DNA from: Candidatus Latescibacterota bacterium
GTDB lineage: Bacteria > Latescibacterota > UBA2968 > UBA8231
NCBI GenBank assembly: GCA_965206595.1
Contig: OZ242214.1
Span: 5,920,001 to 5,984,000, forward strand
Length of the DNA stretch: 64,000 nt
Reading direction: 5' to 3'
Shown here: in pieces, positions 34,071 to 63,169 of the stretch
Position numbering within the stretch: the stretch's first letter is position 1
Layout of the letters: each line of letters opens with the position of its first letter
Position numbers and translations under genes: made by a program
The notes under the pieces: model-generated
Told to the model about the DNA's origin: nothing
Databases searched by the model: none
The model's input: only the letters and a program-made list of their open reading frames with translations

Positions 34071-34232
34071 CATGTCTCGAGCTATTCGTTGAGGCTGGTA
34101 GTGATAAAATTGCAGGTATCCGTGGATCGGAGTATAGTGAAGGTCTTCGCCCAAATTTTCCCAATGAGCAAGGTCCCGCAGCAGTTTCGGTTTATGGATG
34201 TGGAATCATAAAGGAGGAAGATTCCTTATTTT

Positions 34233-36264: not shown

Positions 36265-37149
36265 TTCTACTTGGAGGATGACCCCTTCGTGATCCGATTT
36301 CGTGTAAAACCGCAGGTTTGGCTGCCCAAGGAGAAGGCTGTCCCGATTCACGAGGACCACGTTTGGGAGGCTCTTTCATTCACTCAGAGCTACCAAAAGA
36401 ACAGCTCGCATTGGACCGGCAAGATGCGAAACAGCCTTAATCTTCTATCCGAGGAAGATGGTCAGTTCTTGGAAGAGTTGCTGGAACGCCAGAAGATAGG
36501 TGGACACACATACGAATTGGACGAGGACCACTACCGGAAGCTTGTTGGACAGAGAATTCGGCGGGAAGACAAGGTGGTTTCTGTATCCGTACCTCAGGAG
36601 GATGAGTCGGAGGTAGAAGCTCGAGATGAACAGACTATTCGCGAATCCTATCAGATACAGGCACTCCTAGCTCGGATTGGGGAGGCCATGGGATTTACTG
36701 TCTGGCTTCCACCTAGCGATCGCTCCAATATAATTCGGGAGTGGGCGCCAGATGACGGAGTGTTGTTGAATGCACTGCCACTGAATTATGACGAAACTAC
36801 CTTGAAGACAATTGAACAAATTGATGTACTCTGGTTGCGACGTAGATCAATTGTCAGAGCCTTCGAAGTTGAACACTCGACAGCGATCTATTCCGGAATA
36901 CTCCGAATGGCCGACTTGCTGGCGCTTCAGCCAAACATGGACATCCGTCTTCACATTGTTGCCCCGTACGGTCGAAGGGAGAAAGTTCTCCAAGAAATTC
37001 AGCGGCCGGTCTTTTCGTTGCTGGAACGCGCTCCGCTGTCGGAGATCTGTTCTTTTATCTCTTACGATAGCGTGAGAGAGGTATCTGACGAGCAGCACCT
37101 CTCCTATCTGTCGGACGCAGTGCTTGAGGAATATGCAGAGGAAGCCTAA
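36265..37149 (+). pseudogene. 5'-truncated EVE-like/PD-(D/E)xK endonuclease gene (restriction-like)
   Basis: IDVLWL...AFEVEHSTAIYSGILRMADL nuclease-like motif; N-terminus cut at the IS end; EVE assignment is from recall. Confidence 0.6.
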
Positions 37150-37188
37150 GAAACCGGACTGATTGTACCGAGAGGGCAAGCAACGGGC

Positions 37189-37271
37189 ACATAACACGTC
37201 CGTGCCCGGCTTCGGCGCTGAGGCGCCTTCGCGCAACCGTTGCGCGGTTCGGGCACTTTCCGACGTTAGAC
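37189..37271 (+). other. attC-like integron cassette recombination site
   Basis: ACATAAC ... GTTAGAC with internal arms GTGCCCG/CGGGCAC, 40 nt after a stop codon; spacing slightly non-canonical. Confidence 0.55.
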
Positions 37272-37329
37272 GAAAAGGAGCAAGGGCGTAGGGCTCAGGC
37301 CAGTGGATATGGTTTGCGGGACAGGCCAT

Positions 37330-37364
37330 TTGCAATATATCGCACATTGCGATACATTATATGG
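37330..37364 (+). promoter_or_regulatory. higBA promoter/operator (probably leaderless)
   Basis: TTGCAA-17-TACATT, inverted repeat TATCGCA-CAT-TGCGATA, ATG 6 nt after -10. Confidence 0.65.
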
Positions 37365-37652
37365 ATGCACGTAATCTCACGCAAAGCCCTCCGAGCGTTT
37401 TGGGCACAGCATCCCGACAGTGAGGAGCCTCTGAGTCGCTGGTTCAAGATCATGCGGCAGACTCAGTTTAAGAGTTTTGCGGCATTGCGCCACACCTTTC
37501 CTTCGGCCGACAAGGTCGGCGAATTCGTCGTGTTCAACATTGCCGGCAACAAGTACCGCCTGATTGTCTCTATTCACTTCAATCGGGGCAAAGCATACAT
37601 CCGTCATGTGCTTACACACCAAGCCTACGACCGTGGAGGATGGAGGATATGA
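37365..37652 (+). CDS. higB: HigB-family toxin
   Basis: MHVISRKAL...FPSADKVG...VFNIAGNKYRLI...LTHQAYD. Confidence 0.9.
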   Translation: MHVISRKALRAFWAQHPDSEEPLSRWFKIMRQTQFKSFAALRHTFPSADKVGEFVVFNIAGNKYRLIVSIHFNRGKAYIRHVLTHQAYDRGGWRI

Positions 37653-38047
37653 GTGTCATTACGCCGCAGCTTCAGCGATCCTGGACGCAAGTGAGTGCGT
37701 TACTCAAGATTCAGAACGAGCAGGAGTACGACTTGGCCTTGGAGCGGCTCAACAGCCTGATCGATGAAGTGGGAACGGATGATCGGCATCCGCTTTACTC
37801 TCTGCTCGATACAATGGGCACCGTTGTCCACGCTTGGGAAGAACAACACCATTCCATGCCCAACTTGAAGGGTGCGGATGCACTGCGCTTTCTCATGGAA
37901 GAGCATGAATTGACCCAGTCGGATTTGCCGGAGGTGGGTTCGCAAGGGGTGGTTTCTGAGATTCTGAGCGGCAAGCGAGAGCTAAACGTCCGGCAGATAC
38001 GAGCATTGTCCAAGCGATTTGGGGTCTCGGCCTCAGTATTCGTATAG
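37649..38047 (+). CDS. higA: HigA-family antitoxin (HTH)
   Basis: LRFLMEEHELTQSDL...GSQGVVSEILSGKRELN; ATGA overlap with toxin. Confidence 0.9.
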   Translation: MSVITPQLQRSWTQVSALLKIQNEQEYDLALERLNSLIDEVGTDDRHPLYSLLDTMGTVVHAWEEQHHSMPNLKGADALRFLMEEHELTQSDLPEVGSQGVVSEILSGKRELNVRQIRALSKRFGVSASVFV

Positions 38048-38151
38048 GCCAAGGCGTAGGGACATTCTCGCAAATGCCCTTCGTCTAAAATCAGTTAAGC
38101 GCCGACAGAAAGACTTTTTTTAGGCAATTGAATTCACACAAGGGCCACCGC

Positions 38152-38412
38152 ATGCAGCTGCGCGAATTTCAGAAACACCCAGGAACGAGAATAACTGCTA
38201 TCCTTTTCGCCCTCTGGTTTCTTTTCAACCAGGGCAAAATGACCGCTCCTGGATTATTTGGTGGCAAACCCGGGCACATGTTCACCTGTGCAAGTGTGGT
38301 AGACATCGAGGCTGGAATATTCGTTCATGGTGTAATTCTTTTCATTTGTGCTGGAGTAGGCTTTAGCATTTCGAGCATCGCGGGGTGGATTCTGAAGAAA
38401 CTCAAGACCTAG
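38152..38412 (+). CDS. Small membrane protein
   Basis: Two hydrophobic segments, low GC. Confidence 0.5.
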   Translation: MQLREFQKHPGTRITAILFALWFLFNQGKMTAPGLFGGKPGHMFTCASVVDIEAGIFVHGVILFICAGVGFSISSIAGWILKKLKT

Positions 38413-38484
38413 TTTTCGAGCGGAATGTGCTGGAACGTTAAGTGACATGCGCACGATAAGTCTGACCTTGTTTAGAGGTCACGG

Positions 38485-38847
38485 ATGAATCGGAACTTTG
38501 TTGTCTCGATAAACTCGGTCTCGGGAGGAGGGAAAACTGCTCTGGCGACCGCCTTGCATCGCTCACTGCCGCAATCGGCTCTGTTTTGCTTCGACGATTT
38601 CGATGAGTCCAACGTTTATCCAGATGACTTCTATGAGTGGAGTCGTCGTGGGGCCGATATAACGGAATTTGACTGTCCTGGGATGAGAAACGCGGTCGAC
38701 GAAGAAATTCAAAGGGGTAAGGCGAAACAGATAATACTTGATTTTCCGTTTGGACGTCGCCACCCTCGGTTCGCTGACATCATCGATCTCGACGTGTTCA
38801 TCGATACTCCCCTCGACGTAGCTATGGCACGTCGAATTTTGAGAGAC
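38485..38847 (+). pseudogene. 3'-truncated P-loop kinase (uridine kinase-like)
   Basis: SVSGGGKT, IILDFPFG, FIDTPLDVAMARRILRD then IS end. Confidence 0.7.
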
Positions 38848-40229
38848 CTGAACTTTTGCAAACTCCGCTTTTTTACTAAAGTTTGAGATGTGCGACAATT
38901 CGCTGCTCTGTCCACCCTATTGCGGCTTGGTCCACTACCCAGGAGATGGTCTTACTGAGCGTTTCTCGCGACACGGCTCGACAGGCTTCGCCAATGGTCG
39001 TCAGCACGCTATGAGCCCAGTCACGCGCACGGCCCTGCCGCATCCGTGCCATGAGCAGACTGTGCGTCAGCATCACGAGGTACCTATGCCGAGTCTGGCC
39101 CTCGCCGCTTTTGTAACTGACAGTCTCCCATGCCCAGATGGTGCTTGCCGTCCCGATGAAAGGTCTCGGTGCCCGTCCAGCGTTTGCGATAAACATTCAG
39201 AATACGACTGATCTCCCAGTGCACGCGATGGGTCAGTAGAAACTTGACCGCTTCCCTGCCGTTCTTGCGATCCCACAGGATCACCAGGCGAACCCGGTGC
39301 TTGAGCTTGGGCAGACTCAGGGTTTTGGTGAAATACCATTGTTTGCGCTTGCCGATGCTGACCTGTTTGCGATCCTCGGCTGGGATATTCGCAGCCACTT
39401 CGGCGGCCTTCATCAGGCCGCCCTTGAACTCGACCTTGCGGTTGCTCTTCAGGGCTCCTACGTAGCCGCGCTCATGACTATGGATGTGATCGAGACACTC
39501 GACACTGCTGAAGTAGCAGTCGAAGGCGAAATCGCCCGGGATCTGTCGGAAAACGACCCAGTCCACGAGCTCTTTGAACAGCTCGGTATGGCTCTTGAAG
39601 GAGGTGTCCGTCTCCCCTTCCCGGCGCTTGCGAAAGCGACGGAATTCCAACGGATAGTATTTCCCCGAGGTGCACACGTAGTTGGCGATGACGTAGTCGT
39701 GGGCAATCCTATGGCGCTGGTCGGAGTGATCCCAGAACCAACCCACGTCCTCGATCTTTTCTCCGCTGTGGCCGACCAAGGTGTTGTCGATGGCGATCAC
39801 TCCGCGCCCCGAATAGCGCGTCGAGGGACGCTCCTGCAACCATTCCAGGCGGTGTTCGTTGAGCCATTTCCCGTGCCCATCGCACCTGCGTAATCCAGCG
39901 GTTCAGGCAGGACTGATCGGTGGTCTCGACGAACTCGGCGTTGATCGCCGATACATGTTTGCGTTCGGCCACCATCAACCCGGTCAGATACTCCGCAAAG
40001 TGACGGCGCTCCGGGGCGTTGGCGAAGAGGCCGCCGAACTCTGCCACCGCGTCTTCAACCACCGTGGGAAAGTCAACAATACCTGGCATGAACAACCTCT
40101 CTCATGGCCAGGGGAAACGAAGGCGGGGGATGCCTTCGTTCTACCAAACATACCAAGTTCCATCGAATTCGCGCTACCTTCTATCCTTGACCGATTATCC
40201 CAGGAATTCTGCCTTTTGCAAAAGTCCAG
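38848..40229 (-). mobile_element. IS701-family element copy 2 (inverted, near-identical to copy 1)
   Basis: Reverse complement of 34885-36264 with the same ORF fragments; differences mostly near the outer end. Confidence 0.88.
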
Positions 40230-40235
40230 TTCAAC

Positions 40236-40342
40236 CGACAACACCGCCTTGGGTAAAGGGCGCGATTGAACTGTTACTGGAAAGATATAGTTTGAAAGTT
40301 AAGGTGATGCCATCCCAGATTGACCTTGATCCCATGTACTAA
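40236..40342 (+). pseudogene. DUF2971-like gene, 3' part
   Basis: Joined sequence reads IRVQP-TTPPWVKGAIELLLERYSLKVKVMPSQIDLDPMY*. Confidence 0.8.
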
Positions 40343-41992
40343 GGCTTTATTCCGAAATAAATGAGTCATAAGTTGGGGCGGTACAGGCTAGGATAGCGCC
40401 ACCGCAGTAGTCCAGTTAATTCGTGCCAAGGCCTAAATTTTCCTGGTTAGTCTATCAGTCCTTTTGTCTTAGGTCCTTTACCAGCAATCCAAAAACACTT
40501 TTCCATGATGGGTGTCAAGGCGCTGAGCGCTCCGCTGAAGCTCAGGATACTTCCGGTTCCACTGCGGTTCTCGAAATCCGGGCGATCAGCCATCCAAGGA
40601 AGCGAGCGATTGCGCGTTGGACTAGTGGATTGGAAAACTTCCATCGACCCTAACGTTGCATAAACCTGTCTGATGGTGGCCGTTTATATCAGGCCGCATC
40701 TTTTAGCATTTCGAGGAAATGCAACAGTTCCTCCTTAGCTTGCGGGTTTGAATTCATCGTCAGGGTCAACTCGCCCTTGGGCTGAGTCAGGCGGCCGGCG
40801 CGTTGGATGAAACGATGTCGCAAGGTGTCCAGGGTCTGGAATAGTCCACGCGGCGGGCCGTTTGGCGCGCGAATAGGTTGCTGACGAATGGGCGATCATC
40901 TGCATTTCGCGACCCAGATTGTGCGCCATCATGGCGCACAAGGTGACCATCTGGTTGGCGAGCAAGCGCCGGGTGGGGATCAGGTCCAGCCCGGCCTGTT
41001 GCTTGGCCTCCCCGAAGACCCCTTCCTGAGCGCCGCGCCCCCCGTGAAAGAGGACGACGTTACCTGCCGAGGTCGTTTTGTTGGTCACCACGACCCGGTA
41101 GTCATGGTCGAATTGTCGAGGTTGAAACAGATCCAGCTGCAACGGTTGCTTGGTCTGTCGTTTGACCCTGCGGCGCACGAAGACAAACCGATACGAGGCC
41201 GCCCAGCTTGCCGGTTTCCACGCACTTTCGAAATAGGACCGTTCCTTGTCCAGATAGCGCCAGCGTTTTCGTGACTCGACCTTGTGCTTGAGCTCGGGGA
41301 AGCGTTCGAAGGGCACGCTGAGGGTGTACTCGGCGCCATACAAATCCAGGAGGGTGAGGGTGTGTTGGCTGAAGAAGGCGCTGTCCAGACGGGCCTCGAG
41401 CACGGGGTGGGTACCCAGGGCGCCGACCCGGTCGAAGGTGTCCATCATGAACTCATGACCCCCCTTGCTGTCATGGACATTGCCGGGACGGTGCAGGACA
41501 TCGAGAAATTGCCCGGTTTGGGCCACGGTGCAAAACAGGTTGTAGTAACTGCGGGCCCCCTTCCTTTTGGGGTTGTAGCCGACGGCGGTACCTTCGGCAT
41601 GAGCGCGCGTGGATACCACCGACCCGTCGAAGTCGAGGGTCAGACGAGGCAACTGCTCACGCTGGAGCGCATGTATCACCAGGGTCGAGGACACAGCTGG
41701 CGCACGTGGGCCCCATTCGAGGGGCTCAGGGACGCCAGGGTGCGACTGATGGTGGCCACGTCCGGTAGCCGACGCAATCCCAACAAGCGCTGCACCACCG
41801 GATCGTCCCGGTAGTAGTCCACGTCTCGCAAGCGCCGGAAACCTAATAGTAGATGTACGACGAGCAGCAACACAACGACATGGGGACCGAAGATCGCCGA
41901 GCCCTTGGCGGGACGGAAGCAGTGCTTCAATCGGGCTTTCAGGTTAAGCCGCTGAAACAGCAGCAAAAAGACGATCGCTCCGGCAAAGGAAG

Positions 41993-43549
41993 GGGTGTAG
42001 CCGCGTTTTTACGCAGCCATGGTGTAGGGTTGCGAGGTGGTCTTTTTTAGGTACCAGCTCCAGAAGGCCTCCCATCGTTTCGATTGCACGTGGACTCGTA
42101 GGTTGAGAATCTGCTGTCCGCCTTCGCGCGTCCAGCGCATGCCGCTTCGTTTGAGTCGATGACCGACCAGGGTTTTGGCGGCCGCCTCCACGGGACCACT
42201 GGAGAGGATCAAGCCCGAAGCGTGATAGCCGGCGTAGTCCATTTTATCCCGGTTGTTGCGGAAGTAGCCCAGTTCGGTGGTCGCCTGACGATGGCGTGCT
42301 GATCCTTTTGGGAGTTGGCGCCGATGGTAGGCCAGGGAACGGATCAGACCCTGAACGGCACCCGGCTCATGGCGCAGTTTGTGGCGCCATCGTCGATACC
42401 AGCGAAAAGCTTTTCCCGACCGCTTGCCGAAGAGGTGCTCGGCGGCCTTCGACAGGTGCTGGGCGGCGTGGTAGAAGTCGAGAATGCGGGTGAAGCCGTC
42501 GAACACCCTGAGCCCATCCACGGTACGCCAGATCTCGCGCTTGCCGTCGGCCAACACCACCCGGTGCTCGTAGCTCCCTTGCTGCAGGGCCCGATCCGTC
42601 TGGTTCACCAGGCCGTTGACCAAAGTTTCCATTTTTGCCTCCGGCATGCGCGCGGCATAGCGCACGTCGACGCGTTGGGGCTCTTCCCTGTCGGGATCCA
42701 GCGGCGTCAGGTAGGTGGCGACTATGCCCACCCCCGCCTCTTTCCAGGCCGTGGGGGCGCTGTCGGTTTCGCTGTCCATCGGTCGTTCGGCGGGCCGTCC
42801 GCGCTTGGGTGCCGGTTCCCGCAGGGGCACGGTAACTCCGTCCCAACTAACCACCAGGGTGTCGCCCTCGGGATCCAGCGGCGCCGCTGCTTGCAAGGCC
42901 AACTCGAGTTGTTCGGCGTGGTCCTCGGCATACTGGCCGACCCGGGTCAACAGCTGCTGAATGGCCGTGCGCGAGGGCGGCTCGGGCAGCAGCTCCCCCA
43001 AGCAGTCCCGGACCTCGGCAGGGACCATGCCGGCGCCCAGAAACGCCGTCAGGCGCTCCCGTTCCGGCACCATGAATCGCTTGACCATGCCGCAGCGCTC
43101 ATCCAAAGGCACCCGGCTCGGTCCGCCGCGATCGGGCTGATACAGCCGCCGCGCCACCACAACCTTGCCCCACAGGGTCATCCACTCCTTGTCGACCACC
43201 TGCTTGAATCGGTACACCTTCCCCTGGTGTACCACGGTGTCGTCGTCCAATTCACAAGCTTGAGCCAAGCGTTGGAAACCGCTTCGACCGATGTCGTCCA
43301 AACACGATCGAAACTCCCCCAGCATCTGGCGAAAGGCATCCGGTCCTGCTTGCCCGGACTGCAGGCGATGTTCCCACTGCCGGACATTTTCCTGCAGGTT
43401 GGTCAGGCGAGCGCTCCAATCTTGCGTATCTTCCATCCGGGACCCCTTTCCGGTTTTTGGGCGTAAGTGCATATACCCAAAAGTACAACTCGTCCCCGGA
43501 ATTGGGGTCCCACTCTTGTTAAGAAATGCGTAAAATGGAGGCTACACCC
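41993..43549 (-). mobile_element. ISKra4-like element nested in IS1380
   Basis: TIR GGGTGTAGCC / GGCTACACCC; 8-bp TSD AAAGGAAG (41985-41992, 43550-43557). Confidence 0.88.
42009..43472 (-). CDS. ISKra4-family transposase (intact)
   Basis: SWDG, LADG, LDFYHAAQHL, SGPVEAAAK, RLKRSGMRW. Confidence 0.85.
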   Translation of the reverse strand: MHLRPKTGKGSRMEDTQDWSARLTNLQENVRQWEHRLQSGQAGPDAFRQMLGEFRSCLDDIGRSGFQRLAQACELDDDTVVHQGKVYRFKQVVDKEWMTLWGKVVVARRLYQPDRGGPSRVPLDERCGMVKRFMVPERERLTAFLGAGMVPAEVRDCLGELLPEPPSRTAIQQLLTRVGQYAEDHAEQLELALQAAAPLDPEGDTLVVSWDGVTVPLREPAPKRGRPAERPMDSETDSAPTAWKEAGVGIVATYLTPLDPDREEPQRVDVRYAARMPEAKMETLVNGLVNQTDRALQQGSYEHRVVLADGKREIWRTVDGLRVFDGFTRILDFYHAAQHLSKAAEHLFGKRSGKAFRWYRRWRHKLRHEPGAVQGLIRSLAYHRRQLPKGSARHRQATTELGYFRNNRDKMDYAGYHASGLILSSGPVEAAAKTLVGHRLKRSGMRWTREGGQQILNLRVHVQSKRWEAFWSWYLKKTTSQPYTMAA

Positions 43550-47953: not shown

Positions 47954-48069
47954 TGCCGGTCCGGTGCCCGGATCTGATGGCTGGGCGGCCGGCACGATGC
48001 CGGCGGGGCTGGCGCGGGGCGAGAAAGCAGGTCAGGCGGCGAACTCGAGCTGCCGCTGCCGCCTGCATC

Positions 48070-49268: not shown

Positions 49269-51161
49269 TCAACGCAGTAAGGTCAATTTGCGGCTCAGAC
49301 GGATGGAGCCGGCATCCAACTGGTAGAAGTAGGTCCCGCTGGAAACGGGCGTTCCGCTTTCATCCAGACCGTCCCAGTTCACTTGGATGGCCCCCGTCCC
49401 CGCCTTCCCTTTCCACACCATGCGCACCGGTTGTCCGAGGGCATTGAAGATGCGCAGGGTTGCATCCACCTGCTTCCCATAGGGGATGGAGATGGTGAAG
49501 GGTATGACCGTTCTGGAGTTGAAGGGGTTCGGGAAGTTCTCCTGCAGGGAGAAACGGGGCGGTCCGCTTGAGGAACCAGTCTCCTCCACGAGGGTTGGCC
49601 GCCGGATGATCTCGGGCGGCCCCGAGGTGTCCAGTTGCTCGATCAGGGCGGCAGCCGGTGCCGACCGGGGGGAATCCACCCAGGGCTGGGTGCGAACCAC
49701 CCGCCCATCGGACAACTCGAGAACCAGGGTCCACTCGGTCCATTCCCTCTGGCTCCCCCCATCCTCCACATAGCAGTCGATGTTGCCCGTTGCCCGGCGC
49801 TCCCGGAGCACGCCAGGTAGATCCGGGTTGAAGTCGAACATGGGGTCCAGGGTCATTTCCTCGGCCGACAAGGTTGTGTAAAGCCGGGTGAGATAGGGAT
49901 ACTCCTCGAACAACTCCTGGGCGGCCCTCAGGGGCTCGACCACGACCGCTTCCAGTTCGTCGAGTAAGGCCTTCAGATCGTATTCGTCTCCTTTCATGTA
50001 CTCGGCGAAGTCCCGCATGTTGCCGTAGAACCAGGACTCCGCCCTGGAGAGGAGCCATCCTTCCTCCGCCGCCTGGTCATAGGCCTGCCGGTCGCCCTTG
50101 AAAATCACCTGCAGCACCCCTTCTTCCAGGACGCGTTTCGACATGGGAAGGTGCCGGCGCAGCAGGGCCTGCATCTGGTTGTCCCGAGGGAACCTCTGGC
50201 TCCGCAGGGCATCGAGCAGTTCCGGCGCCTCCTCGATGCCGCGCAGCCCGTCGATGTCGTAGAGGCCTTCGGGGTACAGACGCTGGTCCATGACCTCACT
50301 GGATCCGGCGAAGTCGGTGACAAAAGCGCGGCCCCCGGCCTCGTCGGCGGCTGCGGTCACCAACTGGGAATAGTTCGATCCCGAGAAGATCCAGTCGAGC
50401 AGGGCTTCATTTATATGGACGTGGCGGTAGTTGACGGGGACGGCCCTGTGATCACCCAGAATCCAGACAAAGACGGGCATGTCCGGCTGTACAGCGACGG
50501 CAGTCAGGCGGATGGGGATCCCCGGGCGTTCGGCCTTGTAGGTCAGGGCGATGGGCAGCAGATCGCCTACTCCGCGATCCGGCGCCAGGCGAAGGGCCAG
50601 GAAGTAGTATCCCCCTTCGACGTATGGGGACAACAGTTCCGGTCCGGTGTCCCCTAGCTGATAGTTGTTGTCGGTGAGCCAGTCCACCACCGCCTGGGGG
50701 TCGTCCGCGGTTATCACCACACTCTCGTAGGGGCCGACGCGATCCTCGAAAACGACCTCCACGGGAGGGCCACCGCCGGTGTCAGCGCAGACGCTGCATC
50801 CGCCCAGGAAGTCTTCCATTCCGTAACCGCACGCTTCTTCAAACTCCCAGTCGAGATCGAGGAAAAAGGTTGGACTGGTGGCGGAACCCAGCTGGCGGAA
50901 GAGTTCGTTGTGGCTGACCCGGATCTCGGGAAGGGAGGGAACCGGCAGGATCCAGGCGAAGTCGGCGGCCTCGCCGGTGTACTGGATCTGCACGTGGGTC
51001 GTCACAACGCCGTCCCTGGCAGCGAAGAGGATGCGTTCCCCCGCCTGGTCCATCGGGGCGGTCGTGCAGAAGAAACCTCCGCACGCCCGGACGGCTTCGG
51101 GTCCGGCGAGCAACGACAGTTCCAATCCTGCCAGGATCGGCAACAGAAGCATGTACTTCAT
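49269..51161 (-). CDS. Secreted DUF2330-like protein with C-terminal FlgD-Ig/Por-type sorting domain
   Basis: Signal peptide then ACGGFFC, FAWILPVP, PIRLTAVA; C-terminal LQENFPNPFN...WDGLDESGTPVSSGTYFYQL. Confidence 0.8.
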   Translation of the reverse strand: MKYMLLLPILAGLELSLLAGPEAVRACGGFFCTTAPMDQAGERILFAARDGVVTTHVQIQYTGEAADFAWILPVPSLPEIRVSHNELFRQLGSATSPTFFLDLDWEFEEACGYGMEDFLGGCSVCADTGGGPPVEVVFEDRVGPYESVVITADDPQAVVDWLTDNNYQLGDTGPELLSPYVEGGYYFLALRLAPDRGVGDLLPIALTYKAERPGIPIRLTAVAVQPDMPVFVWILGDHRAVPVNYRHVHINEALLDWIFSGSNYSQLVTAAADEAGGRAFVTDFAGSSEVMDQRLYPEGLYDIDGLRGIEEAPELLDALRSQRFPRDNQMQALLRRHLPMSKRVLEEGVLQVIFKGDRQAYDQAAEEGWLLSRAESWFYGNMRDFAEYMKGDEYDLKALLDELEAVVVEPLRAAQELFEEYPYLTRLYTTLSAEEMTLDPMFDFNPDLPGVLRERRATGNIDCYVEDGGSQREWTEWTLVLELSDGRVVRTQPWVDSPRSAPAAALIEQLDTSGPPEIIRRPTLVEETGSSSGPPRFSLQENFPNPFNSRTVIPFTISIPYGKQVDATLRIFNALGQPVRMVWKGKAGTGAIQVNWDGLDESGTPVSSGTYFYQLDAGSIRLSRKLTLLR

Positions 51162-51642
51162 ATGGCCTCCTCGCGCTGGGAACGTTGCGCTCACGGCTGG
51201 ATATTCACTTGTCTCGAAACCTCCGTACCTGATATACGAGGCAAATGGGCAACTATGTGAATCCTCAGTCAAGGGGCTGAGGGCATCGCAAGGGCAGGCA
51301 GCTCCGGTCGTGATCACGCCGTTAACGGCGTGATCACGACCATGTGTGATGATCGAGTCTATGACCAGTTCGCGCGTTACGACATCTTTCATTGCCATGA
51401 GCGCATTGCGCATCGCTTCTTTGCCGCGGAGTTCTCCAGGATGCAGTCAACATCAGCGCGGGCAAAGGCGAAATTCAGCTCTTATAGCAGCTGCTTCCTG
51501 GGCGCATCTCCACAATCGGGGTGTACCGTGATCCTGGTCTCCTCGGCAGTCCGGTTCAAGGAGTCATTCTCGTTCTATTGGTGTTTTACGGTATCAAACG
51601 GGTCCTTTTAGGACCTTCAAGTAAATAAATCTTCCTGCTTGA

Positions 51643-51986: not shown

Positions 51987-52970
51987 TCAAGATGCACCGC
52001 GCTCTTTCAGGAGCGCTGCCGCCCGGGTCGCGCCGCCGAACTCCGCCCAACCCCGCGGTGTGCCGCCGTGGGCTCCGTCGACGACGGTGGGGTCCGCACC
52101 GCGGTCCAACAGCAGCTTCACGCAGCCCACCGCGTCGTGCTGGGCGGCCAGGTGCATGGCGACAGCGCGCACGCCGTGTCCTTCGCCGCCCCAGTCGTGG
52201 CGCAGATCCGGATCCGCGCCGTGATCGAGCAGCCAGACCGCGGCTTCCACCTTGTCGCTGTAGCAGGCCCACAGCAGCGGCGTGCCGCGGAACGGGTTGG
52301 CGTTGACGTTGGCGCCACGGGCTACGAGTTCTGCCATCGTGTCGCATTGGTTGTTCCGCGCCGCCCAAGACAGCGCCTCGTCGACGACCTCCTGGCGCTC
52401 GAGCGTCCTGTTCCAGGTGGGGAAGAACACCGGGGCGTAGAAGCCGAGGCCTTCCCGCGCGGCAGGCGTCGGATCGCTCCCTTCGAAGAACCTGCTGACG
52501 TCGGCGCCAAGGGCCGCAGCGGCGCGCAGGTTGTCCGGGTACACGGGCGTGAGCACGCCGCCCATGTAAGCCTTGGCATAGAACAGGGCGTACGACAGGG
52601 GCGAACCGCCCTCTCTCCCGTAAGCCTCGTCACGAACGGAGGCCCCGGCCTGCACCAGACGCGCGCCGAGGTCGGTGTGTCCCGCCATGCCGGCGGTGTG
52701 CAGCGGCGTCCAACCGTCGTTGTCGGCCGCGGAAGGGTCCGCGCCTGCGGCCAGGATCATGTCCACCGCCGCGTGCTGCTGCCGAGTGCCGGGATCGAGA
52801 GGAATGGCGATGTCGCCAGTGGCCGCGCGGCAGGCCAGATCGAGCAGGGTGCGCCCGTCGGCATCGGCGGCGGCGGTTACGGAAGGAGAATCGGCAAGGA
52901 TGGCCGCGAGGGACTCGAGATCGCCCGCACGGGCGGCCGTTGCCGCCTGCGTCAGTGCGTCTTCAGCCAC
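51987..52970 (-). CDS. Ankyrin-repeat protein
   Basis: GRTLLDLA, GWTPLHTA, GSPLSYA, GTPLLWA, LLDHGADP repeats; start uncertain (TTG 53024 alternative). Confidence 0.88.
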   Translation of the reverse strand: MAEDALTQAATAARAGDLESLAAILADSPSVTAAADADGRTLLDLACRAATGDIAIPLDPGTRQQHAAVDMILAAGADPSAADNDGWTPLHTAGMAGHTDLGARLVQAGASVRDEAYGREGGSPLSYALFYAKAYMGGVLTPVYPDNLRAAAALGADVSRFFEGSDPTPAAREGLGFYAPVFFPTWNRTLERQEVVDEALSWAARNNQCDTMAELVARGANVNANPFRGTPLLWACYSDKVEAAVWLLDHGADPDLRHDWGGEGHGVRAVAMHLAAQHDAVGCVKLLLDRGADPTVVDGAHGGTPRGWAEFGGATRAAALLKERGAS

Positions 52971-53094
52971 GCCGGTCTCCCTGGTCGGGGGGGCGGTCGC
53001 ATCACCTTGGGAAATCCTTGCCAAAAAGGGGATGAAGCGCCGGGCACGAGCTCGAATGCTTCGAGTTCCACGTCCGGCAAAAGCGGAGCCGCGT

Positions 53095-53391
53095 TCAGTT
53101 CCGCCCTTGCCGAACTTCCCGCCAAAGCCTCACGGCCAGCGGGAAGTCGCCGTCCCTGAGAGCGACCAGAGCCAGCACCTTGAGGGAATCGCGGGATCGG
53201 TGGAGGGCGCAGGCGCGCTGAGCGCAGGCGCGGGCTCGCGTGCTGCAACCGCGTTCAAGCGCCGCACGTGCGGATCGCCGTTGGCGGTCTGCGGCCTGTT
53301 CGACCGCCAGCACCTGGCGCAAATCGGTCTGGCAGCGATGGCAGCAAAGGCCCCCCTGGTACCGGGCCCTGCAGGTCGGACAGCATTCCAC
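53095..53391 (-). CDS. Small CxxC-CxxC zinc-ribbon plus TPR-like protein
   Basis: CPTC...CHRCQTDL then helical repeat; 5 nt downstream of Hsp70 stop. Confidence 0.7.
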   Translation of the reverse strand: MECCPTCRARYQGGLCCHRCQTDLRQVLAVEQAADRQRRSARAALERGCSTRARACAQRACALHRSRDSLKVLALVALRDGDFPLAVRLWREVRQGRN

Positions 53392-53396
53392 GCAGG

Positions 53397-55136
53397 CTAT
53401 TCCAGATAGAAGAGAATCTCGTCGAGTTCCTGCCTGCAGGCAGCGACCTTTTCCGCCTGCCCTTCCCTCAGGGCATCGCGCAGATCCTCCATGAGATTGA
53501 CGATCTCTTCGCGATCCTGGGCCGGGGAGGTATCGAGCACTTTTTCAGCTCGTTCCAGGGTGTCCTTGACCTCATCGGGCACCTCGACGCCGGCCTCCTC
53601 CCCGGGTGTGGCTTCCTCTACCCCCCAGAGTGCCTCGACCCGCTTCCTGGACGCGCTGAGTTCTTCTTCAGTGGAACGCCCCATGGCGTCTTCCACTACA
53701 CCGTGGATTTCCCGGCCGGTCGCCCGTTCGACGGCGTGAATTTCCAGGAGGCCGTCGAGATCCAGACTGTAGGTAAAGAGAATCCCCTGCTCCTGGGCGC
53801 CTTTCTGCTGGTTCAAATCGCCAAAGTGGAAGGTGCCGATCTCCACGTTCTTCAAGGCGTCCGGATCTTCTCCCTGGTAGACCTTGATCTCCACGTTTTC
53901 CTGATGTTCGTGCATGGTGAAGAATACTTCCGTCCGGGTAGCCGGGAGTCTGGCGTTGCGCCGGATGAGGGGAATGAACTGGTGAGCGTAAGGCATACCG
54001 TAGAGTTCCCCGACGGCACTGGTGCCGAAAGTATAGGGCGTGATATCGACGAGGACGGCCTGCACCTCCTGCCCCATCTCGATCCCCGCCTGCACCGCAG
54101 CCCCCAGCGCCACGCACAGATCCGGGTCCACGCCGCCGTGCGGCTCCTGCCCGAGTCGCTCCGAAAGGAGTTGGACAATGCGCGGAATGCGGGTCGAACC
54201 TCCCACCAGCAGAATGCGGTCGAGCTGGCTCGGGCGCACATCGGCGTCGTTGAGCGCCGTAGTAACAGCCTGCATGGTGCGGGCCAGCGGTTCTTCCAGC
54301 GCGCGTTCAAAGTCGTCGCGGCTCAGTTCGCAGGAAAGATGCAGGGCCTCGCCGTCGACCGAAGCGACGTGGTCTTCCTCCACGCAGGCGTACGGCTGAT
54401 GGGAGAGTTCGATTTTGGCTCTTTCCGCCGCCTGCCGCAGCCGCGCCTGCAAAAGCCGGTTCCGGCGGCTGTCCGCAAGGCCCAGTTCGGTTTCGACGTG
54501 GGTGTTGAGGCGCTCGAGGAGGACCTGGTCGAAATCGTCCCCCCCCAGGTGGTTGTCCCCGGTGGAAGCCAAGACCTCAACCACCCCTGCTTCCATGCTA
54601 ACCACCGAGACGTCGAAGGTGCCCCCGCCCAGATCGTACACGAGGATTTTGCGGTGTCCCTCGCTGCTGCTTTCGTAACTTAGCGCAGCGGCCGTAGGCT
54701 CGTTGATAATCCGCACCACCTCCAGGCCGGCGAGATCGCCGGCTTCCCGGGTGGCCTGCCGCTGGGCATCGGTGAAATAGGCCGGTACCGTGATGACGGC
54801 CTTGGACACGGGCCGGCCCAGGGCCGAGCTCGCCCGCTCTTTGAGCGCCTTGAGGATAAAGGCGGAAATCTCCTGCGGCCTGTATTCCTCCGCTCCCATC
54901 GGCACCTTGGTCTCGGAACCCATGAGGCGCTTGATGGAAAGCACCGTGCGCTCAGGGGCGACCGCGTACTGATTGCGGGCCTGGTGCCCGATGACGACCT
55001 GCCCCGTCTCATCGAGCCCCACACAGGAAGGGAGAATCGCTTCATCTCCCTCCCGGACGATCCGGGGCGTCCCCCCGGAAATAATCGCCACTTCCGAGTT
55101 GGTCGTGCCCAGGTCGATACCGATGACCGGTTCCAT
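53397..55136 (-). CDS. Hsp70-family protein (DnaK paralog, non-canonical)
   Basis: GIDLGTTNS, VITVPAYF, INEPTAAA, YDLGGGTFD, LVGGSTRIP; linker VLVDITPYTFG; short C-terminus. Confidence 0.92.
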   Translation of the reverse strand: MEPVIGIDLGTTNSEVAIISGGTPRIVREGDEAILPSCVGLDETGQVVIGHQARNQYAVAPERTVLSIKRLMGSETKVPMGAEEYRPQEISAFILKALKERASSALGRPVSKAVITVPAYFTDAQRQATREAGDLAGLEVVRIINEPTAAALSYESSSEGHRKILVYDLGGGTFDVSVVSMEAGVVEVLASTGDNHLGGDDFDQVLLERLNTHVETELGLADSRRNRLLQARLRQAAERAKIELSHQPYACVEEDHVASVDGEALHLSCELSRDDFERALEEPLARTMQAVTTALNDADVRPSQLDRILLVGGSTRIPRIVQLLSERLGQEPHGGVDPDLCVALGAAVQAGIEMGQEVQAVLVDITPYTFGTSAVGELYGMPYAHQFIPLIRRNARLPATRTEVFFTMHEHQENVEIKVYQGEDPDALKNVEIGTFHFGDLNQQKGAQEQGILFTYSLDLDGLLEIHAVERATGREIHGVVEDAMGRSTEEELSASRKRVEALWGVEEATPGEEAGVEVPDEVKDTLERAEKVLDTSPAQDREEIVNLMEDLRDALREGQAEKVAACRQELDEILFYLE

Positions 55137-55141
55137 GGAAA

Positions 55142-55807
55142 TCACTCCTTCGGGTCGAGACGGTTGACGGCTACCTCGGCCAGGCGAAGCACCTGGCCGT
55201 CTCGCGTAAAACCGCTGAGAAACTCCTCGACGACCACCTTGTCGGCGAGTTGCGCGACCCGGCGCGTCTCCACCGACCGCATGGTGCGGGCATCGAAGGG
55301 ATTCCCTACGGTCGGCAAGAGCTGGACGCCGAAACCGCCCAGCATCCGGTCGAAGCGTCTGAGAGCCAATTCATATCCTTGCACCACCCCGGCAATCCCC
55401 GATGCGCGGCGCCGGAACAGCAGCGGCGGTCGACGCAGTTCGCCTGCCGCCGCCCGGCCTCGCACCAAAGCGTCGCGCACCTCTAAAAAGGGCCGCAGGC
55501 AGCGATCCTCGGCCGCCCTGGCGACGCGCTGCTCGAAGGATGCCAGATCCTCTTCCCGGTGCTGCGCCCAGTCCGCGACCGTTCCGTATAGAGCGCCCGC
55601 CCTGGCCAACTCCCGGCCAACTCTGGCCTGCTCCCGGTTCTGCAGGCGGGTCTCCTGCCGCAGGGCGGCAATTTCTGCGAACAGGTCGCGCAGGTCGCAC
55701 TCGGCGGTTTCCCCGGCAGCCGCTGGAGGGTCCCCGGTCCACTCCTCCAGCCACTGCCCGAAATCCGCCAGCGCCTGTTGCTTCCAGTCGTCGCCCGGCC
55801 TACCCAT
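55142..55807 (-). CDS. GrpE-like nucleotide exchange factor
   Basis: Coiled coil then GNPFDARTM...VVEEFLSGF...VLRLAEVAV. Confidence 0.85.
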   Translation of the reverse strand: MGRPGDDWKQQALADFGQWLEEWTGDPPAAAGETAECDLRDLFAEIAALRQETRLQNREQARVGRELARAGALYGTVADWAQHREEDLASFEQRVARAAEDRCLRPFLEVRDALVRGRAAAGELRRPPLLFRRRASGIAGVVQGYELALRRFDRMLGGFGVQLLPTVGNPFDARTMRSVETRRVAQLADKVVVEEFLSGFTRDGQVLRLAEVAVNRLDPKE

Positions 55808-56126
55808 CGTTGCCGTTGCCTTTCACCGAAGCCTTGCCCTCCGCCGCAAGGAGCGTTTTCAAGCCCGGTGTCTTGCGCCCGCCCGCCCGCGCCTGGACCA
55901 ATGCCTCGAGAGCGAGTTCAAATTCGCCGTACCGGGCCATCCCGAAGATGGCGGTTTCCACTCGCGAGCGGTCGTCCTTCAAGGCGTCGTATGCGGCGGC
56001 AATTTGCTGGAAGCGCTGCGGATTCCGACCGGGTGGATGGGTGCGGACCAGCTGCAAATAGCGCTGGCGAATCTCTGCCTGGGAGGCGGTCGGAGAAAGC
56101 CCCAGGACCAGGTAATGAGCCAGCAT
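55800..56126 (-). CDS. Small J-domain protein with HPP variant motif
   Basis: YLVLGL...EIRQRY...THPPGRNP.RFQQIAAAYDAL. Confidence 0.85.
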   Translation of the reverse strand: MLAHYLVLGLSPTASQAEIRQRYLQLVRTHPPGRNPQRFQQIAAAYDALKDDRSRVETAIFGMARYGEFELALEALVQARAGGRKTPGLKTLLAAEGKASVKGNGNDG

Positions 56127-56146
56127 GTCTCAGCTCCTCAACGAGG

Positions 56147-58780
56147 TCACTTCTTTTTTCGGGCGAAGAGCAGAAAGTACACTTCCGGCGACAGCGAGTC
56201 GCTCAGATTCTCTGCCTCGCACTCGCCGGCTATCCGTTCCAGGTCTCGCCGCGTCTCAGGACTGGATCTGAAGTCGCCGGCAAATTCCTTGAGTGCGGAC
56301 AGGGGGGCTCCTCGCAGGTTGTTTTCCTCGATGATGTCTTCCAGCTCGAACAGTTCTTCTTCTATACGGCGGCCGCCCGGATCCGGAAACGCCGGAGCCC
56401 CGGCCCCGTCGCTGAGCGGCCCGCCGAGGAGGTCCAGCGGAAACCCACCCCCGAACAGGGCCAGGGGCAAGTCGAGCAGGTCAAAGCGGAACTCCTGCAG
56501 GGCCTTCCGCAAGGGGGCGTCCACGTGGCCGGCGAGCCGCGCCGCAGCCGCCCGCAGCCGCGTCTGGTCGGCGGCGTCGGCCGCGTCGAGGACTTCCTTA
56601 AAGCGCCTCGAATCGCAGTCCTGGCCCTCCTGGTAGCGAATTACCGCCAGGTAGAACAGCAGCAGCCGGTCGCGCCGGCCCTTTTTGCGGCCCCGCAGGC
56701 GGCGGTCTATTTCGGCGCGGACCGGAGCGAGCTCGTCGCAGGCCATCAGGATATCGAAAAAGGCCAGCAGGACCTCCCCTTCGAGGCGCTCCATGAGTGC
56801 CGGCCACCAGTCGGCGAGGACCGGAGCCGTCTGCAGGCGTTCGTAGAGGATGCGGAAGTCAGCCGGCAAAGGGGCGATGAGCTCGAGAATCTCGTCGGGG
56901 CCGAGTTGATCAAAGGCGGTTGCTTGCCGGCCGAGCAACGGTTTAAGGGCACCCTCCATCTCGGGCCGGACGTTTTTGGTATGGCTGTTTTCCGCCAGAT
57001 CGTGGAGCAGCAGGGCCAACGTTCTGAGCCGGGCACCGGGCGGCAGGCACTCCAGGCGGGGAGCGACGACCTCGGCGGCGTCCCGGCCGGCCGATACGAC
57101 CGCCAGAAGAAGACCCTTCACCCGCAAGACCAACGCCAGCCGCGGACGCTCCAGGTGCTCAGCGCGCTGGAGGTCCCGGGCGGCCAACTCAAACCTTCCG
57201 CGCTTGCGGCTCTGATCGGCGGATTTGAGGAAGCCGATGGCCTGCATATCCAGAAGACGCTCGTCGTGGGGAGCGCGCCTGAGGCCCTCGGCAAGGGCCT
57301 TTTCGGCGCGCCGGTACGCGTTCCTGGCATAGTGGAGGGCAGCCAGTTCCAGGTAGGGGTCCGGATCGTCCGGGAAGCGGGCGGCCATGTCGCCCAAGGT
57401 CTTTTCGAACCTGGACCGGTACTCGGGGTGGCCCCGCAGCAGACCGAGGAGAAAGCGATAGCCTTCGCGGTTGCCGGGATCGGCCGCAAGACTGGCCGTC
57501 ATCAACTGGGCCAACAACATCCGGGGATCTTCGAGCGGTTCGTCCAGCAAGGCCGCGAGACACTCTACCGCTTCCGAACGCAGGCGGTGTGGCTGAAGAC
57601 CGACCTTGTGAGCGGTCCGGGCGAGGACCTCCAGCACGCGGCCCCGGGCAAGGGCCCGGTCCGGAGCATGGGGAAACTCCACCAGCAGCTGGTCGAGATA
57701 CACGGCAGCCGGCGCCGGATCCCACAAGTGGGGTTCCATCTGCTGGATCAGCAAGCCAATCTGGGCGGTGACCCCAGCCGCCCGCTCATCCGAAAGGAGC
57801 CGGCTGGCCAGGCCGGAGAAGATCCTGACGGGCACTTTGTTCTGCGGAACGGCCAGACCAACGACCTGCAGCAGGGCAATCCGAGCCTGGAGAGGCTCTT
57901 CGGGGTAAAGGGCAGCGGCCAGACCGGGAATAATCCGTTCTATCTCGCGCAGACGCCCTTTGTGAATCGCCTGGCCCAGTTGGTCGGCAAGGGCCGCGCT
58001 GTCCGTCCCCAGGGCATGCTGCACTGCCGCCGGCCCGCCGACGCCTTCGCCGGTACAAAGACGTCTCCATTCGGCGACTGTGTGCGGCAGGGCAAAATCG
58101 GCCGGCAAAAGGTCGAGAATCCGGCGCAACCCCTCGTTGTCGCCGTTGCCGAAACAGACCATGGCCTTGCAGAACAGACGCCAGGCAGCAAACGGGGAGC
58201 GCCGGCTGATTCCTTGCAGCAGGCCGCCGGCCCGCTCCCAGTCCCCGGCGTCCATGGCTTCAAGGCTCTCCTGGACTGGAGCGGTGTCCCGCCGCAGGGG
58301 GTGATCCGCGGCAAGGACTTCGAGGCCCTGCCAGCACCGTTGGATCACGAGCAGATCCGCCAGCATCCGCTCGACCTGGAGAATGGGCGGCAATGGGGTC
58401 TGCAGATAGTCCGCATAATCCGCCAGTACTTCCGCCCCGTCTGCGTGGCGGAAGTACTGCACCAAGTCTTCTTCGGCCAGCTGCTGGAAGGAAATGGAGG
58501 TTCGGTACTGGGCAGCACCTGCCCGCATCGCACCGGCTTCCTTGGCCAGGCCCTTTTGCGCCAACTGACGGGCGCGTTGCTTGCAGGCGCAAAAAAGCAA
58601 CAGCGGCAGTTCCTCCATCGCAGGGTCGCCGTGCTGGGCATGCCTGAGCAGGTCGAGGGCTCTGCGTCCATCCCCCTCGGTCAAAGTCTGCCGGGCCTGC
58701 GCCAACAGATCCCTGGGCGGAACGCGCCTTTGTTTCAGCCGTTTCCGCTTTCGATCTCTGCGGCTGTGCATACCGGGCAT
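56147..58780 (-). CDS. Large alpha-helical/TPR-like hypothetical protein (877 aa), first gene of Hsp70 operon
   Basis: Long ORF, FPDDPDPYLELA...ALAEGLRRAPHD TPR-like segment, basic N-terminus. Confidence 0.75.
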   Translation of the reverse strand: MPGMHSRRDRKRKRLKQRRVPPRDLLAQARQTLTEGDGRRALDLLRHAQHGDPAMEELPLLLFCACKQRARQLAQKGLAKEAGAMRAGAAQYRTSISFQQLAEEDLVQYFRHADGAEVLADYADYLQTPLPPILQVERMLADLLVIQRCWQGLEVLAADHPLRRDTAPVQESLEAMDAGDWERAGGLLQGISRRSPFAAWRLFCKAMVCFGNGDNEGLRRILDLLPADFALPHTVAEWRRLCTGEGVGGPAAVQHALGTDSAALADQLGQAIHKGRLREIERIIPGLAAALYPEEPLQARIALLQVVGLAVPQNKVPVRIFSGLASRLLSDERAAGVTAQIGLLIQQMEPHLWDPAPAAVYLDQLLVEFPHAPDRALARGRVLEVLARTAHKVGLQPHRLRSEAVECLAALLDEPLEDPRMLLAQLMTASLAADPGNREGYRFLLGLLRGHPEYRSRFEKTLGDMAARFPDDPDPYLELAALHYARNAYRRAEKALAEGLRRAPHDERLLDMQAIGFLKSADQSRKRGRFELAARDLQRAEHLERPRLALVLRVKGLLLAVVSAGRDAAEVVAPRLECLPPGARLRTLALLLHDLAENSHTKNVRPEMEGALKPLLGRQATAFDQLGPDEILELIAPLPADFRILYERLQTAPVLADWWPALMERLEGEVLLAFFDILMACDELAPVRAEIDRRLRGRKKGRRDRLLLFYLAVIRYQEGQDCDSRRFKEVLDAADAADQTRLRAAAARLAGHVDAPLRKALQEFRFDLLDLPLALFGGGFPLDLLGGPLSDGAGAPAFPDPGGRRIEEELFELEDIIEENNLRGAPLSALKEFAGDFRSSPETRRDLERIAGECEAENLSDSLSPEVYFLLFARKKK

Positions 58781-59075
58781 TTTACCTCGTCCGCTGGCCG
58801 ATCCGGCTCTCCCTGGGCCGCTCGCGATGCACCATCCCGGCCAGCTGGGGCGCTGCTCGTAGAGACTGGAGGGCCACGGTCGGCATCACCGCACTCGGCT
58901 CCGGGTCCATTGATCAACTCTGTTGTCGAGCAGTCCAGAGAATGGGGTCCACCTCGATCAGGATATCGTACCACTTGCCAGGTTCCATCTCAAGCCCGGT
59001 CCCTGTCCTCCATCCGCCACCGGCCACAGGGCAGTAACGGACCGCATGACGCGAGTGTCGATTACACGGATATCC

Positions 59076-63046: not shown

Positions 63047-63169
63047 TGCGTGCTCCTCTCCGGCGGGCAAACGTCCAAGGATGGAACTATGTATCAGGTA
63101 AAATAAGGCACCGGTCTTGGACTCTCGGCCAAGGCGCTGAGCGCGCCCCCCTGCGTTTCTAAAACACCT

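Follow-up and report, generated by a model that had tools for sequence, protein, structure and literature searches.

Why would a bacterium carry, besides its housekeeping chaperones, a second set of Hsp70 genes together with a large partner protein, and what might such a set act on? In this work we have investigated this question for five genes which lie at 53095-58780 of a 64,000-nt window (the whole stretch of DNA that was analysed; assembly GCA_965206595.1, contig OZ242214.1, positions 5,920,001 to 5,984,000) from Candidatus Latescibacterota bacterium. A first-pass annotation, made from the letters of the window, had described five tightly coupled genes here, and all five open reading frames (ORFs) are found exactly at this place (Table 1). 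In the order of transcription they encode an 877-aa protein resembling a tetratricopeptide repeat (TPR) solenoid, which we call the scaffold, a small J-domain protein, a GrpE-like factor, an Hsp70 and a 98-aa zinc-ribbon/TPR protein. Successive genes are joined by a 20-nt gap, an 8-nt overlap, a 4-nt overlap and a 5-nt gap, and the cassette with its five proteins takes up 5.7 kb. It is a specialised Hsp70 system of a type without a published description in the literature that can be searched: full-text searches, which reach few subscription journals and no supplementary tables, found no such description. Judged by the comparison of genomes, the cassette is also a mobile accessory which has moved between distant bacteria as a unit. 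The reading that we favour, and that we consider probable though by no means assured, is that of a self-contained mobile Hsp70 machine in which the scaffold and the miniature J protein together make up a two-piece TPR-plus-J targeting co-chaperone.

Could the five genes simply be the housekeeping chaperone set of this organism? A canonical dnaK lies at 1.46 Mb of the 7.05-Mb genome (909 bits), and a housekeeping grpE (148 bits) is found at 2.05 Mb, where it adjoins a 384-aa frame for a full-length dnaJ; the chaperones of the window are therefore a second, separate set. The separate dnaK, for which the first-pass annotation had proposed a check, is thus present elsewhere in the genome, while its remark that there is no full-length dnaJ holds for the cassette but not for the genome. 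In each of five other carrier genomes, too, a single canonical DnaK is accompanied by 1-3 cassette Hsp70s. Against the NCBIfam DnaK equivalogs the window Hsp70 scores 495.2 (NF001413, cut-off 648) and 482.8 (TIGR02350, cut-off 822.55), and against the HscA equivalog 390.4 (TIGR01991, cut-off 708.55), all of them below the cut-off, and Pfam revealed no HscB or IscU homologue among the five cassette proteins. The protein is 39% identical to the DnaK of its own genome, 36-37% to E. coli DnaK, 34% to HscA and 33-35% to HscC; by BLASTP it matches E. coli DnaK with 343 bits and E. coli HscC with 299 bits. In a FastTree phylogeny of 16 cassette Hsp70s, six DnaKs from carrier genomes and the DnaK, HscA and HscC of E. 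coli, the cassette proteins formed one clade (support 0.95-1.0), apart from DnaK+HscA and from HscC, in a tree which is unrooted and consists of three long branches (cassette, DnaK+HscA and HscC), HscC being represented by E. coli alone. These observations support a non-housekeeping Hsp70 separate from the DnaK of the genome. They bear out the earlier proposal of an orthogonal chaperone set, and the comparison with DnaK, HscA and HscC that had been suggested for it places the protein in a clade of its own, not with housekeeping DnaK. Separately, a 1049-aa open frame in another part of the genome has, at G000:C1:3574223-3574585 (L004), a partial match to the Hsp70 ATPase domain (46 bits, profile positions 133-238) and may be another Hsp70-like fusion protein.

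The sequence of the cassette Hsp70 suggests that it is ATPase-competent. The catalytic residues D8, K70, E171, D194, T199 and D201 are kept in 16/16 sampled proteins, as are R167 and N170, which contact the J domain (all in E. coli DnaK numbering). In comparison with E. coli DnaK, the window protein lacks ~22 residues around DnaK 76-101 in the ATPase domain and four residues at the D211 loop, carries an insertion of eight residues in loop L1,2 of the substrate-binding domain, and retains the loop at DnaK 285-296. The first-pass annotation had noticed that the ATPase motifs are kept, which is correct, but it had also called the linker divergent and the lid short, and neither description stands: the linker VLVDITP is a conservative variant of VLLLDVTP in DnaK, with D393 and the hydrophobic positions kept, and the lid helices are present and can be aligned to about DnaK residue 597. 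The disordered C-terminal tail of DnaK is missing. The last nine residues, LDEILFYLE, are shared by 54-59 of 60 sequences in each column, and a DILFYLE end also occurs in both of the distant relatives described below, whose Hsp70s are 51% identical overall. In eukaryotes, EEVD tails dock on TPR co-chaperones, and DNAJC3 and DNAJC7 are proteins which combine TPR and J domains. By analogy, the ILFYLE end may be a docking peptide for the 98-aa protein or for the scaffold.

The two smaller partners of the Hsp70 are both divergent in their own way. The Pfam GrpE match of the GrpE-like factor spans residues 93-215, and residues 139-215 weakly match the solved GrpE structure 4ani; since the protein passes the Pfam GrpE cut-off and misses every NCBIfam GrpE equivalog cut-off, we regard it as a divergent paralogue. 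Its gene is found in the cassette of every complete locus. The 98-aa protein begins with a CPxC-x9-CxRC zinc ribbon, whose four cysteines are invariant in 33/33 aligned sequences. In its AlphaFold2 model (predicted local distance difference test, pLDDT, 93.2) zinc knuckles are followed by four helices forming two TPR-like repeats, of which ~63 residues superpose on known TPR repeats with a root-mean-square deviation of 1.1-1.3 Å, at E-values that are all >0.04. The protein had been described beforehand as a CxxC-CxxC/TPR protein, and both halves of this description agree with the alignment and the model.

Conservation and movement of the cassette

Is the arrangement a peculiarity of one genome? 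A locus scan using one genome per species gave 74 loci, and in 63/74 all five genes stand in the same order on one strand. A further 8/74 loci end at a contig edge within 3.4 kb, with the expected genes present up to the edge, and the 3/74 exceptions have an intact large gene alone (L035), a truncated large gene (L079) or small remnants (L081). At L035 the intact large gene has no J, GrpE, Hsp70 or zinc-ribbon gene after it. L079 and L080 have in common a ~1.5-kb element which interrupts the large gene, and at L081 only fragments of the large gene and of the GrpE gene remain. Whether the large and the zinc-ribbon genes are conserved beside the Hsp70 had been named by the first-pass annotation as a decisive point; they are, with the five genes in order at the 63 loci. 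According to their titles, the carrier metagenome-assembled genomes (MAGs) belong to at least seven phyla and come from Latescibacterota, Vicinamibacterales/Acidobacteria, Spirochaetia, Binatia, Alpha- and Gammaproteobacteria, Dehalococcoidia and Syntrophobacterales. The five genes also keep their order in two distant relatives, G382 (scaffold 23% identical) and G159 (30%), and the architecture is therefore much older and wider than the close group to which the window belongs. A possible sixth gene behind the zinc-ribbon gene was also considered and rejected: the candidate, an ORF of one MAG with many copies of the cassette, recurs in that MAG alone.

The distribution of the cassette differs from that of the genes around it. 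The ORFs which flank it in the window have relatives in 1-3 loci, as against 63-73 for the cassette ORFs, and every flank family is confined to 10 loci or fewer. One Vicinamibacterales MAG has seven copies of the unit, spread over two contigs; five are intact and two disrupted by a common insertion, and the seven are 84-99.8% identical in DNA over ~6.2 kb, from ~350 bp upstream of the first gene to just past the fifth. Other MAGs have two to four copies. Within the genus of the window organism, one genome (G108) possesses the cassette at 95% identity, and another, 96% complete (G109), has the ankyrin and BamB-like genes at 92% and 86% DNA identity without the cassette between them. The slot in G109 (L103:296-1339) is filled by ~1.5 kb with a 347-aa ORF in place of the 6-kb cassette of the window; reading by eye, we saw GNHD-type phosphoesterase motifs in this ORF. 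It is because of the seven copies in one genome and the other gene in the slot of a same-genus genome that we take the cassette for a mobile accessory. Six genomes were compared in 15 pairs, 14 of which join differently titled phyla, and the cassette Hsp70s were more alike than the DnaKs in 15/15 (70-89% versus 61-77% identity), and between phyla the values were 70-78% for the cassette Hsp70s and 61-70% for the DnaKs of the same genomes. In the window's phylum, 9/168 genomes carry the scaffold, the genome of the window included, and all of them are from one family; in a 401-genome sample from the phylum of G173, 2 do.

The scaffold, the J protein and the client question

What kind of protein is the scaffold? 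Its AlphaFold2 model is an all-helical solenoid (pLDDT 83.7), as expected from the helical, TPR-like character which the first-pass annotation had ascribed to it. The protein has a basic N-terminus, a disordered stretch at 772-804, a four-helix C-terminal module at 805-872 and a basic tail. Pfam gives a single TPR_19 match at 462-514, slightly under its cut-off (24.4 bits, cut-off 25), Foldseek against the PDB found generic TPR solenoids only (Ctr9, Naa15, Ski3, IFT-A and APC/C, with template modelling scores ≤0.22), and the protein atlas placed it among generic TPR clusters only. Before the basic tail the C-terminus reads [LF]-L-F-[PA]-R, with L871 in 71/72 and F872 in 63/72 sequences; compared with the sliding-clamp-binding motif QL[SD]LF, the Q position is occupied by H, R, Y, D or A. 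A collection of 5.8 billion proteins contains 245 relatives of ~900 aa, with no informative name among them, and the scaffold profile matched 1157 of 1.84 billion cluster representatives at E≤0.001, 450 at ≤1e-10 and 215 at ≤1e-30. Of the named relatives that were looked up, one, from Desulfobotulus mexicanus, is annotated as a 'tetratricopeptide repeat protein' and one, from a Desulfobacterales MAG, as hypothetical. Since the Desulfobotulus with its scaffold relative is a cultured isolate, genetics may be possible there.

The J protein is short (~100 aa), soluble by its sequence, and has no His-Pro-Asp (HPD) motif. Its best match among solved J domains has E = 7e-7, and the HPD of the human DNAJA1 J domain aligns to HPP in the window protein. 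Throughout the family the loop begins with H in 66/71 sequences and continues with P or R, and its third position is P in 68/71 and D in 0/71; in the distant relatives the loops are YSP and YPP. We modelled the complex of the scaffold with the J protein from alignments of 32 rows each, the rows being taken from the same loci, and obtained an interaction prediction score from aligned errors (ipSAE) of 0.79, with 0.79-0.80 in three runs and 0.00 in all three controls. Between the runs the contacts agree to at least 89%, and the pLDDT of the partner is at least 83. In a calibration which is only rough here, the alignments being author-made, a score of 0.79 was reached by 58/80 solved complexes and 2/110 mismatched pairs. 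The predicted interface is formed by residues 1-3, 6, 11-12 and 52-98 of the J protein and residues 75 and 145-437 of the scaffold; J helices II and III and the HPP loop lie outside it. The model supports binding of the conserved C-terminal tail of the J protein (52-98) to the N-terminal half of the scaffold. We also found one natural 1031-aa protein in which a scaffold (44% identical) is followed by a J protein (67% identical) in a single frame, a fusion which, as far as its sequence tells, fits the complex model. The first-pass annotation had taken the 877-aa protein for the client or the sensor of the Hsp70. A physical link between the scaffold and the chaperones is borne out by the complex prediction and the one fusion, but these point to a platform that carries the J protein rather than establish a client or a sensor.

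Is it possible that the scaffold is nevertheless an obligate client, one whose assemblies the Hsp70 would dismantle or switch? A comparison can be made with clathrin, which is uncoated by Hsc70 and auxilin, the gripping motif being in a disordered C-terminal tail. Just ahead of its own disordered linker the scaffold has a segment, AL-x-x-F-x-F-x-x-L-D, whose key residues are conserved in 72/72 sequences (A760, L761 and F766) and which is present also in the 23%-identical relative. This segment speaks for the scaffold as a client, and so do the predicted seat of the J protein on the scaffold itself and the autonomy of the cassette, which has no conserved neighbour as a candidate client. However, the segment is modelled as a helix (pLDDT 78-82) and not as an exposed strand, and its flanks are acidic, whereas binding sites of the DnaK type disfavour acidic flanking residues. 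Nor did we see any sign of the scaffold oligomerising. Taking both sides together, we consider it unlikely that the scaffold is the obligate client.

We hypothesize instead that the scaffold and the J protein act as a two-piece TPR-plus-J co-chaperone. The C-terminal tail of the J protein would dock into the N-terminal half of the scaffold and leave the face of J helices II and III free, and this face would recruit the cassette's own Hsp70. Activation of the Hsp70 would then differ from the canonical HPD mechanism, the J loop being H-[P/R]-P, and the private GrpE-like factor would reset the Hsp70 by nucleotide exchange. Such a machine could remodel a protein bound to the scaffold's C-terminal half, or perhaps the AL-x-x-F-x-F-x-x-L-D segment of the scaffold itself.

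Several points weigh against this reading. The score of the scaffold-J complex is the confidence of a model, not a measurement, and this was the sole pair modelled. The single fusion could be the product of a lost stop codon or of a sequencing error. In canonical systems, absence of the Asp of HPD abolishes the activation of Hsp70, and because this residue is missing here, the J protein may be a non-stimulating tether; its loss throughout the family implies either a changed activation mechanism or tethering without stimulation. With regard to mobility, only weak, chance-level pairs of terminal inverted or direct repeats were seen at the edges of the unit, and among its nearest neighbours there is no recombinase travelling with it.

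A bolder version of the two-piece co-chaperone can also be formulated. The bacterial Hsp70 field rests on three types, DnaK, HscA and HscC, and on the rule that no J domain can switch on its Hsp70 without HPD. Could the cassette be a fourth bacterial machine beside these three, in which a J protein working without HPD sits on a 900-residue TPR platform, the Hsp70 tail is wired to TPR proteins as in eukaryotes, and the whole is a plug-in which acts on something universal or foreign? As the unit travels between phyla as a cassette, its target might indeed be universal or foreign (for instance the proteins of an invading element) and not a lineage-specific client, but we think that the version as a whole is rather unlikely. 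The cassette is a natural and conserved exception to the rule all the same: its Hsp70 retains the catalytic and J-contact residues, while the J loop is without Asp in all members examined. It therefore offers a direct test of whether an Hsp70 can be driven, or is merely tethered, without HPD, and it is compact enough to be expressed whole. If our reading is true, it would be a bacterial example of TPR-based Hsp70 wiring. Identification of the client could reveal a new conflict or maintenance function, or perhaps a portable folding aid.

Surroundings of the cassette

Table 1. Features of the cassette and its immediate surroundings (positions are those of the window)
Feature	Positions	Strand	Basis and remarks
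877-aa TPR-like solenoid (scaffold)	56147-58780	minus	ORF, ATG start
108-aa J-domain protein	55800-56126	minus	ORF, ATG start; Pfam DnaJ 43 bits (cut-off 27.8)
221-aa GrpE-like factor	55142-55807	minus	ORF, ATG start; Pfam GrpE 55.1 bits (cut-off 25.8)
582-aa Hsp70	53397-55145	minus	ORF, GTG start; Pfam HSP70 471.5 bits (cut-off 20.6)
98-aa zinc-ribbon/TPR protein	53095-53391	minus	ORF, GTG start; weak Pfam TPR matches
345-aa ankyrin-repeat ORF	51987-53024	minus	TTG start; Pfam Ank repeats
Sigma-70-like promoter match	58965-58993	minus	~185 nt upstream of the scaffold gene; consensus match only

How the cassette is expressed can be approached from the DNA ahead of it. The candidate promoter, TTGAGA-17-TACGAT, agrees with the consensus at 9/12 positions, has TG ahead of the second hexamer and is the sole match in the region, where 0.4 sites of this type would be expected in shuffled sequence. 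A scan of the whole window with a consensus of the controlling inverted repeat of chaperone expression (CIRCE) found no such element within three mismatches or fewer, as the first-pass annotation had reported. A regulatory motif shared upstream of the scaffold gene was likewise not seen, no 9-mer being common to more than 6/32 loci, and the 9-mers common to several of these regions (≤6/32 loci) fall inside the start of the scaffold coding sequence. The DNA of the window, whole or in part, has been found in 20 sequencing runs from 7 studies, with no RNA runs among the listed holders.

On the other side of the cassette, 70 nt beyond the zinc-ribbon gene, lies the ankyrin-repeat ORF. The first-pass annotation had listed an ankyrin gene after the five; its position is right, but it is not part of the unit, because it follows the five-gene set only in the closest locus, L008. 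Both same-genus genomes have conserved the ankyrin gene, the one that carries the cassette as well as the one that does not. Its product matched the PADLOC candidate model PDC-M72A (E=2e-18), and Legionella Ank effector models were matched far below their cut-offs.

Could such neighbours mean that the cassette is a general second chaperone, which helps with a repeat-rich or otherwise difficult proteome and has been selected in host-associated bacteria? An ankyrin gene adjoins the cassette here and at L008, ankyrin matches occur within a few kb of it at L009, L013 and L042, and duplication of DnaK has been linked to proteome complexity in the part of one study that was available (PMC11019930), which is in favour of this idea. 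A general chaperone, however, would have no need of an 877-aa partner, and this partner is conserved in 63/74 loci. A client-binding domain is lacking in the J protein itself, whose tail is predicted to be occupied with the scaffold. Distant members in a Desulfobotulus isolate and in other lineages also count against the idea. Among the explanations considered, this one seems to us the most improbable.

The neighbouring genes also bear on the suggestion in the first-pass annotation of an anti-phage or conflict activity. Under this proposal, recognition of a foreign protein would fall to the TPR solenoid, and the response would be carried out or gated by the Hsp70 cycle. The patchy, horizontally spread and multi-copy distribution of the cassette would suit this role, and some of the neighbours look like defence genes: the nearest downstream genes (n=63) include 6 AAA_21/AAA_15 ATPases matching AriA, PtuA or AbiLi, one Cas1 and one MmeI, and the upstream ones (n=67) include one SoFic and one Uma2, besides two transposase-family matches (IS66 and DDE_Tnp_1). 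Themes of Hsp70, GrpE and DnaJ-TPR proteins are also found in the GAP1-N2 systems, as far as the accessible text on them goes (PMC7159879). Against this, the remaining neighbours with a family match, which are the majority, are metabolic, envelope or housekeeping genes, and four of the ATPases (~373 aa; L040, L055, L066 and L073, at ~15.0-16.2 kb) come from a single orthologous context in Spirochaetia. The ATPase is missing from the sister loci L041 and L076, where the next gene abuts the cassette; this is a variable insertion point, and the ATPase is thus an insertion beside the cassette and not its companion. No enzymatic or effector domain is visible in any of the five proteins (by Pfam, and in the AlphaFold2 models of the scaffold and the 98-aa protein), and PADLOC 2.0 gave no match for four of them and one marginal match for the Hsp70 (PDC-M61B, E=0.001, 15.9 bits). 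The only GTPase among the nearest neighbours is one gene of the EF-Tu/BipA type, and the conserved five-gene unit contains neither a GTPase nor an FNIII protein. In the IMG/VR viral contigs, a phage collection and a plasmid collection, the collections searched, there were no relatives of the scaffold. With a single marginal PADLOC match, no scaffold relative in these viral, phage and plasmid sets and a minority of defence-like neighbours, the earlier suggestion is not supported. From the genes at hand, a defence role of the cassette is possible but weakly indicated, and we regard a conflict system of the kind outlined above as very unlikely.

Some other features of the window were noted in passing. 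The stretch at 34000-42000 has a G+C content of 0.52-0.57, compared with ~0.65 elsewhere, and may be an inserted island; it contains an ORF for a DDE transposase (40735-41694, minus strand) and several ORFs without a Pfam match. At 49269-51413 (minus strand) a 714-aa protein is encoded, with DUF2330 and a C-terminal FlgD_ig / CHU_C region resembling a type IX secretion signal. Two segments of ~50-60 nt, at ~48011-48058 and 63091-63151, match dozens of sites in two same-genus genomes with 80-90% identity, and there such segments, often paired at a distance of ~200 bp, recur every few kb; the two thus seem to belong to a family of short dispersed repeats.

Comparison with known Hsp70 systems

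Which of the described systems comes nearest to the cassette? E. coli HscC (Hsc62) with DjlB and DjlC, counted as the 'third' bacterial Hsp70 system, is likewise a non-housekeeping Hsp70 with private J proteins encoded alongside. In the part available of the review by Mayer (2021, PMC8215388), HscC-type proteins are characterised by a length of ~550-580 aa, loss of about DnaK 76-101, a deletion at the D211 loop and an L1,2 insertion of 4-8 aa, and are said to have no GrpE signature, HscC being thought not to use GrpE. The window Hsp70, with its 582 aa, carries all of these indels. Unlike HscC as portrayed there (PMC8215388), it keeps the loop at DnaK 285-296 and is invariably accompanied by a private GrpE-like gene. 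The HscC system also has no 900-aa scaffold, zinc-ribbon partner or ILFYLE tail. DjlB and DjlC are large, tail-anchored J proteins, in contrast to the soluble J protein of the cassette, and presumably carry the HPD which the latter is without. In the hscC locus of E. coli K-12 (L096, 677-684 kb) a Sel1 (TPR-like) gene, ybeT, and a DUF1266 gene, ybeU, stand between djlB and djlC; ybeT is a loose parallel to the TPR partners of the cassette.

A specialised Hsp70 paired with its own GrpE paralogue is known from Myxococcus xanthus, where SglK (MxDnaK2) is co-transcribed with GrpS and has a specialised role, according to the portions of the two reports to hand (bioRxiv 10.64898/2026.08.28.747804, PMC11019930). 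The likeness to the cassette is one of description only, and there are differences: the J partner, proposed to be SgmC, has its gene at another place, and the same portions mention neither a TPR scaffold nor a zinc-ribbon gene. The GAP1-N2 GTPase conflict systems, in which Hsp70 and GrpE are encoded with a DnaJ-domain or TPR protein (Kaur, Burroughs, Iyer and Aravind 2020, PMC7159879), share the theme of Hsp70, GrpE and DnaJ/TPR. As set out in the accessible text, they are centred on GAP1-N2 GTPases and FNIII-repeat proteins, neither of which the cassette has, and occur mainly in actinobacteria and firmicutes. CnuD of the CoCoNuT systems represents a related theme and not this cassette, to judge from the part of the paper available (PMC11090510).

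Finally, the cassette may be compared with the eukaryotic TPR co-chaperones Hop, Tah1, RPAP3 and DNAJC3/DNAJC7. The two TPR repeats of the 98-aa protein superpose on domains of eukaryotic co-chaperones, among many other TPR proteins. There is no relation in sequence beyond the TPR fold, and the tail of the cassette Hsp70 is ILFYLE and not EEVD. What the two would have in common is a way of working, in which TPR and J domains are combined and serve an Hsp70 that ends in a conserved C-terminal peptide.

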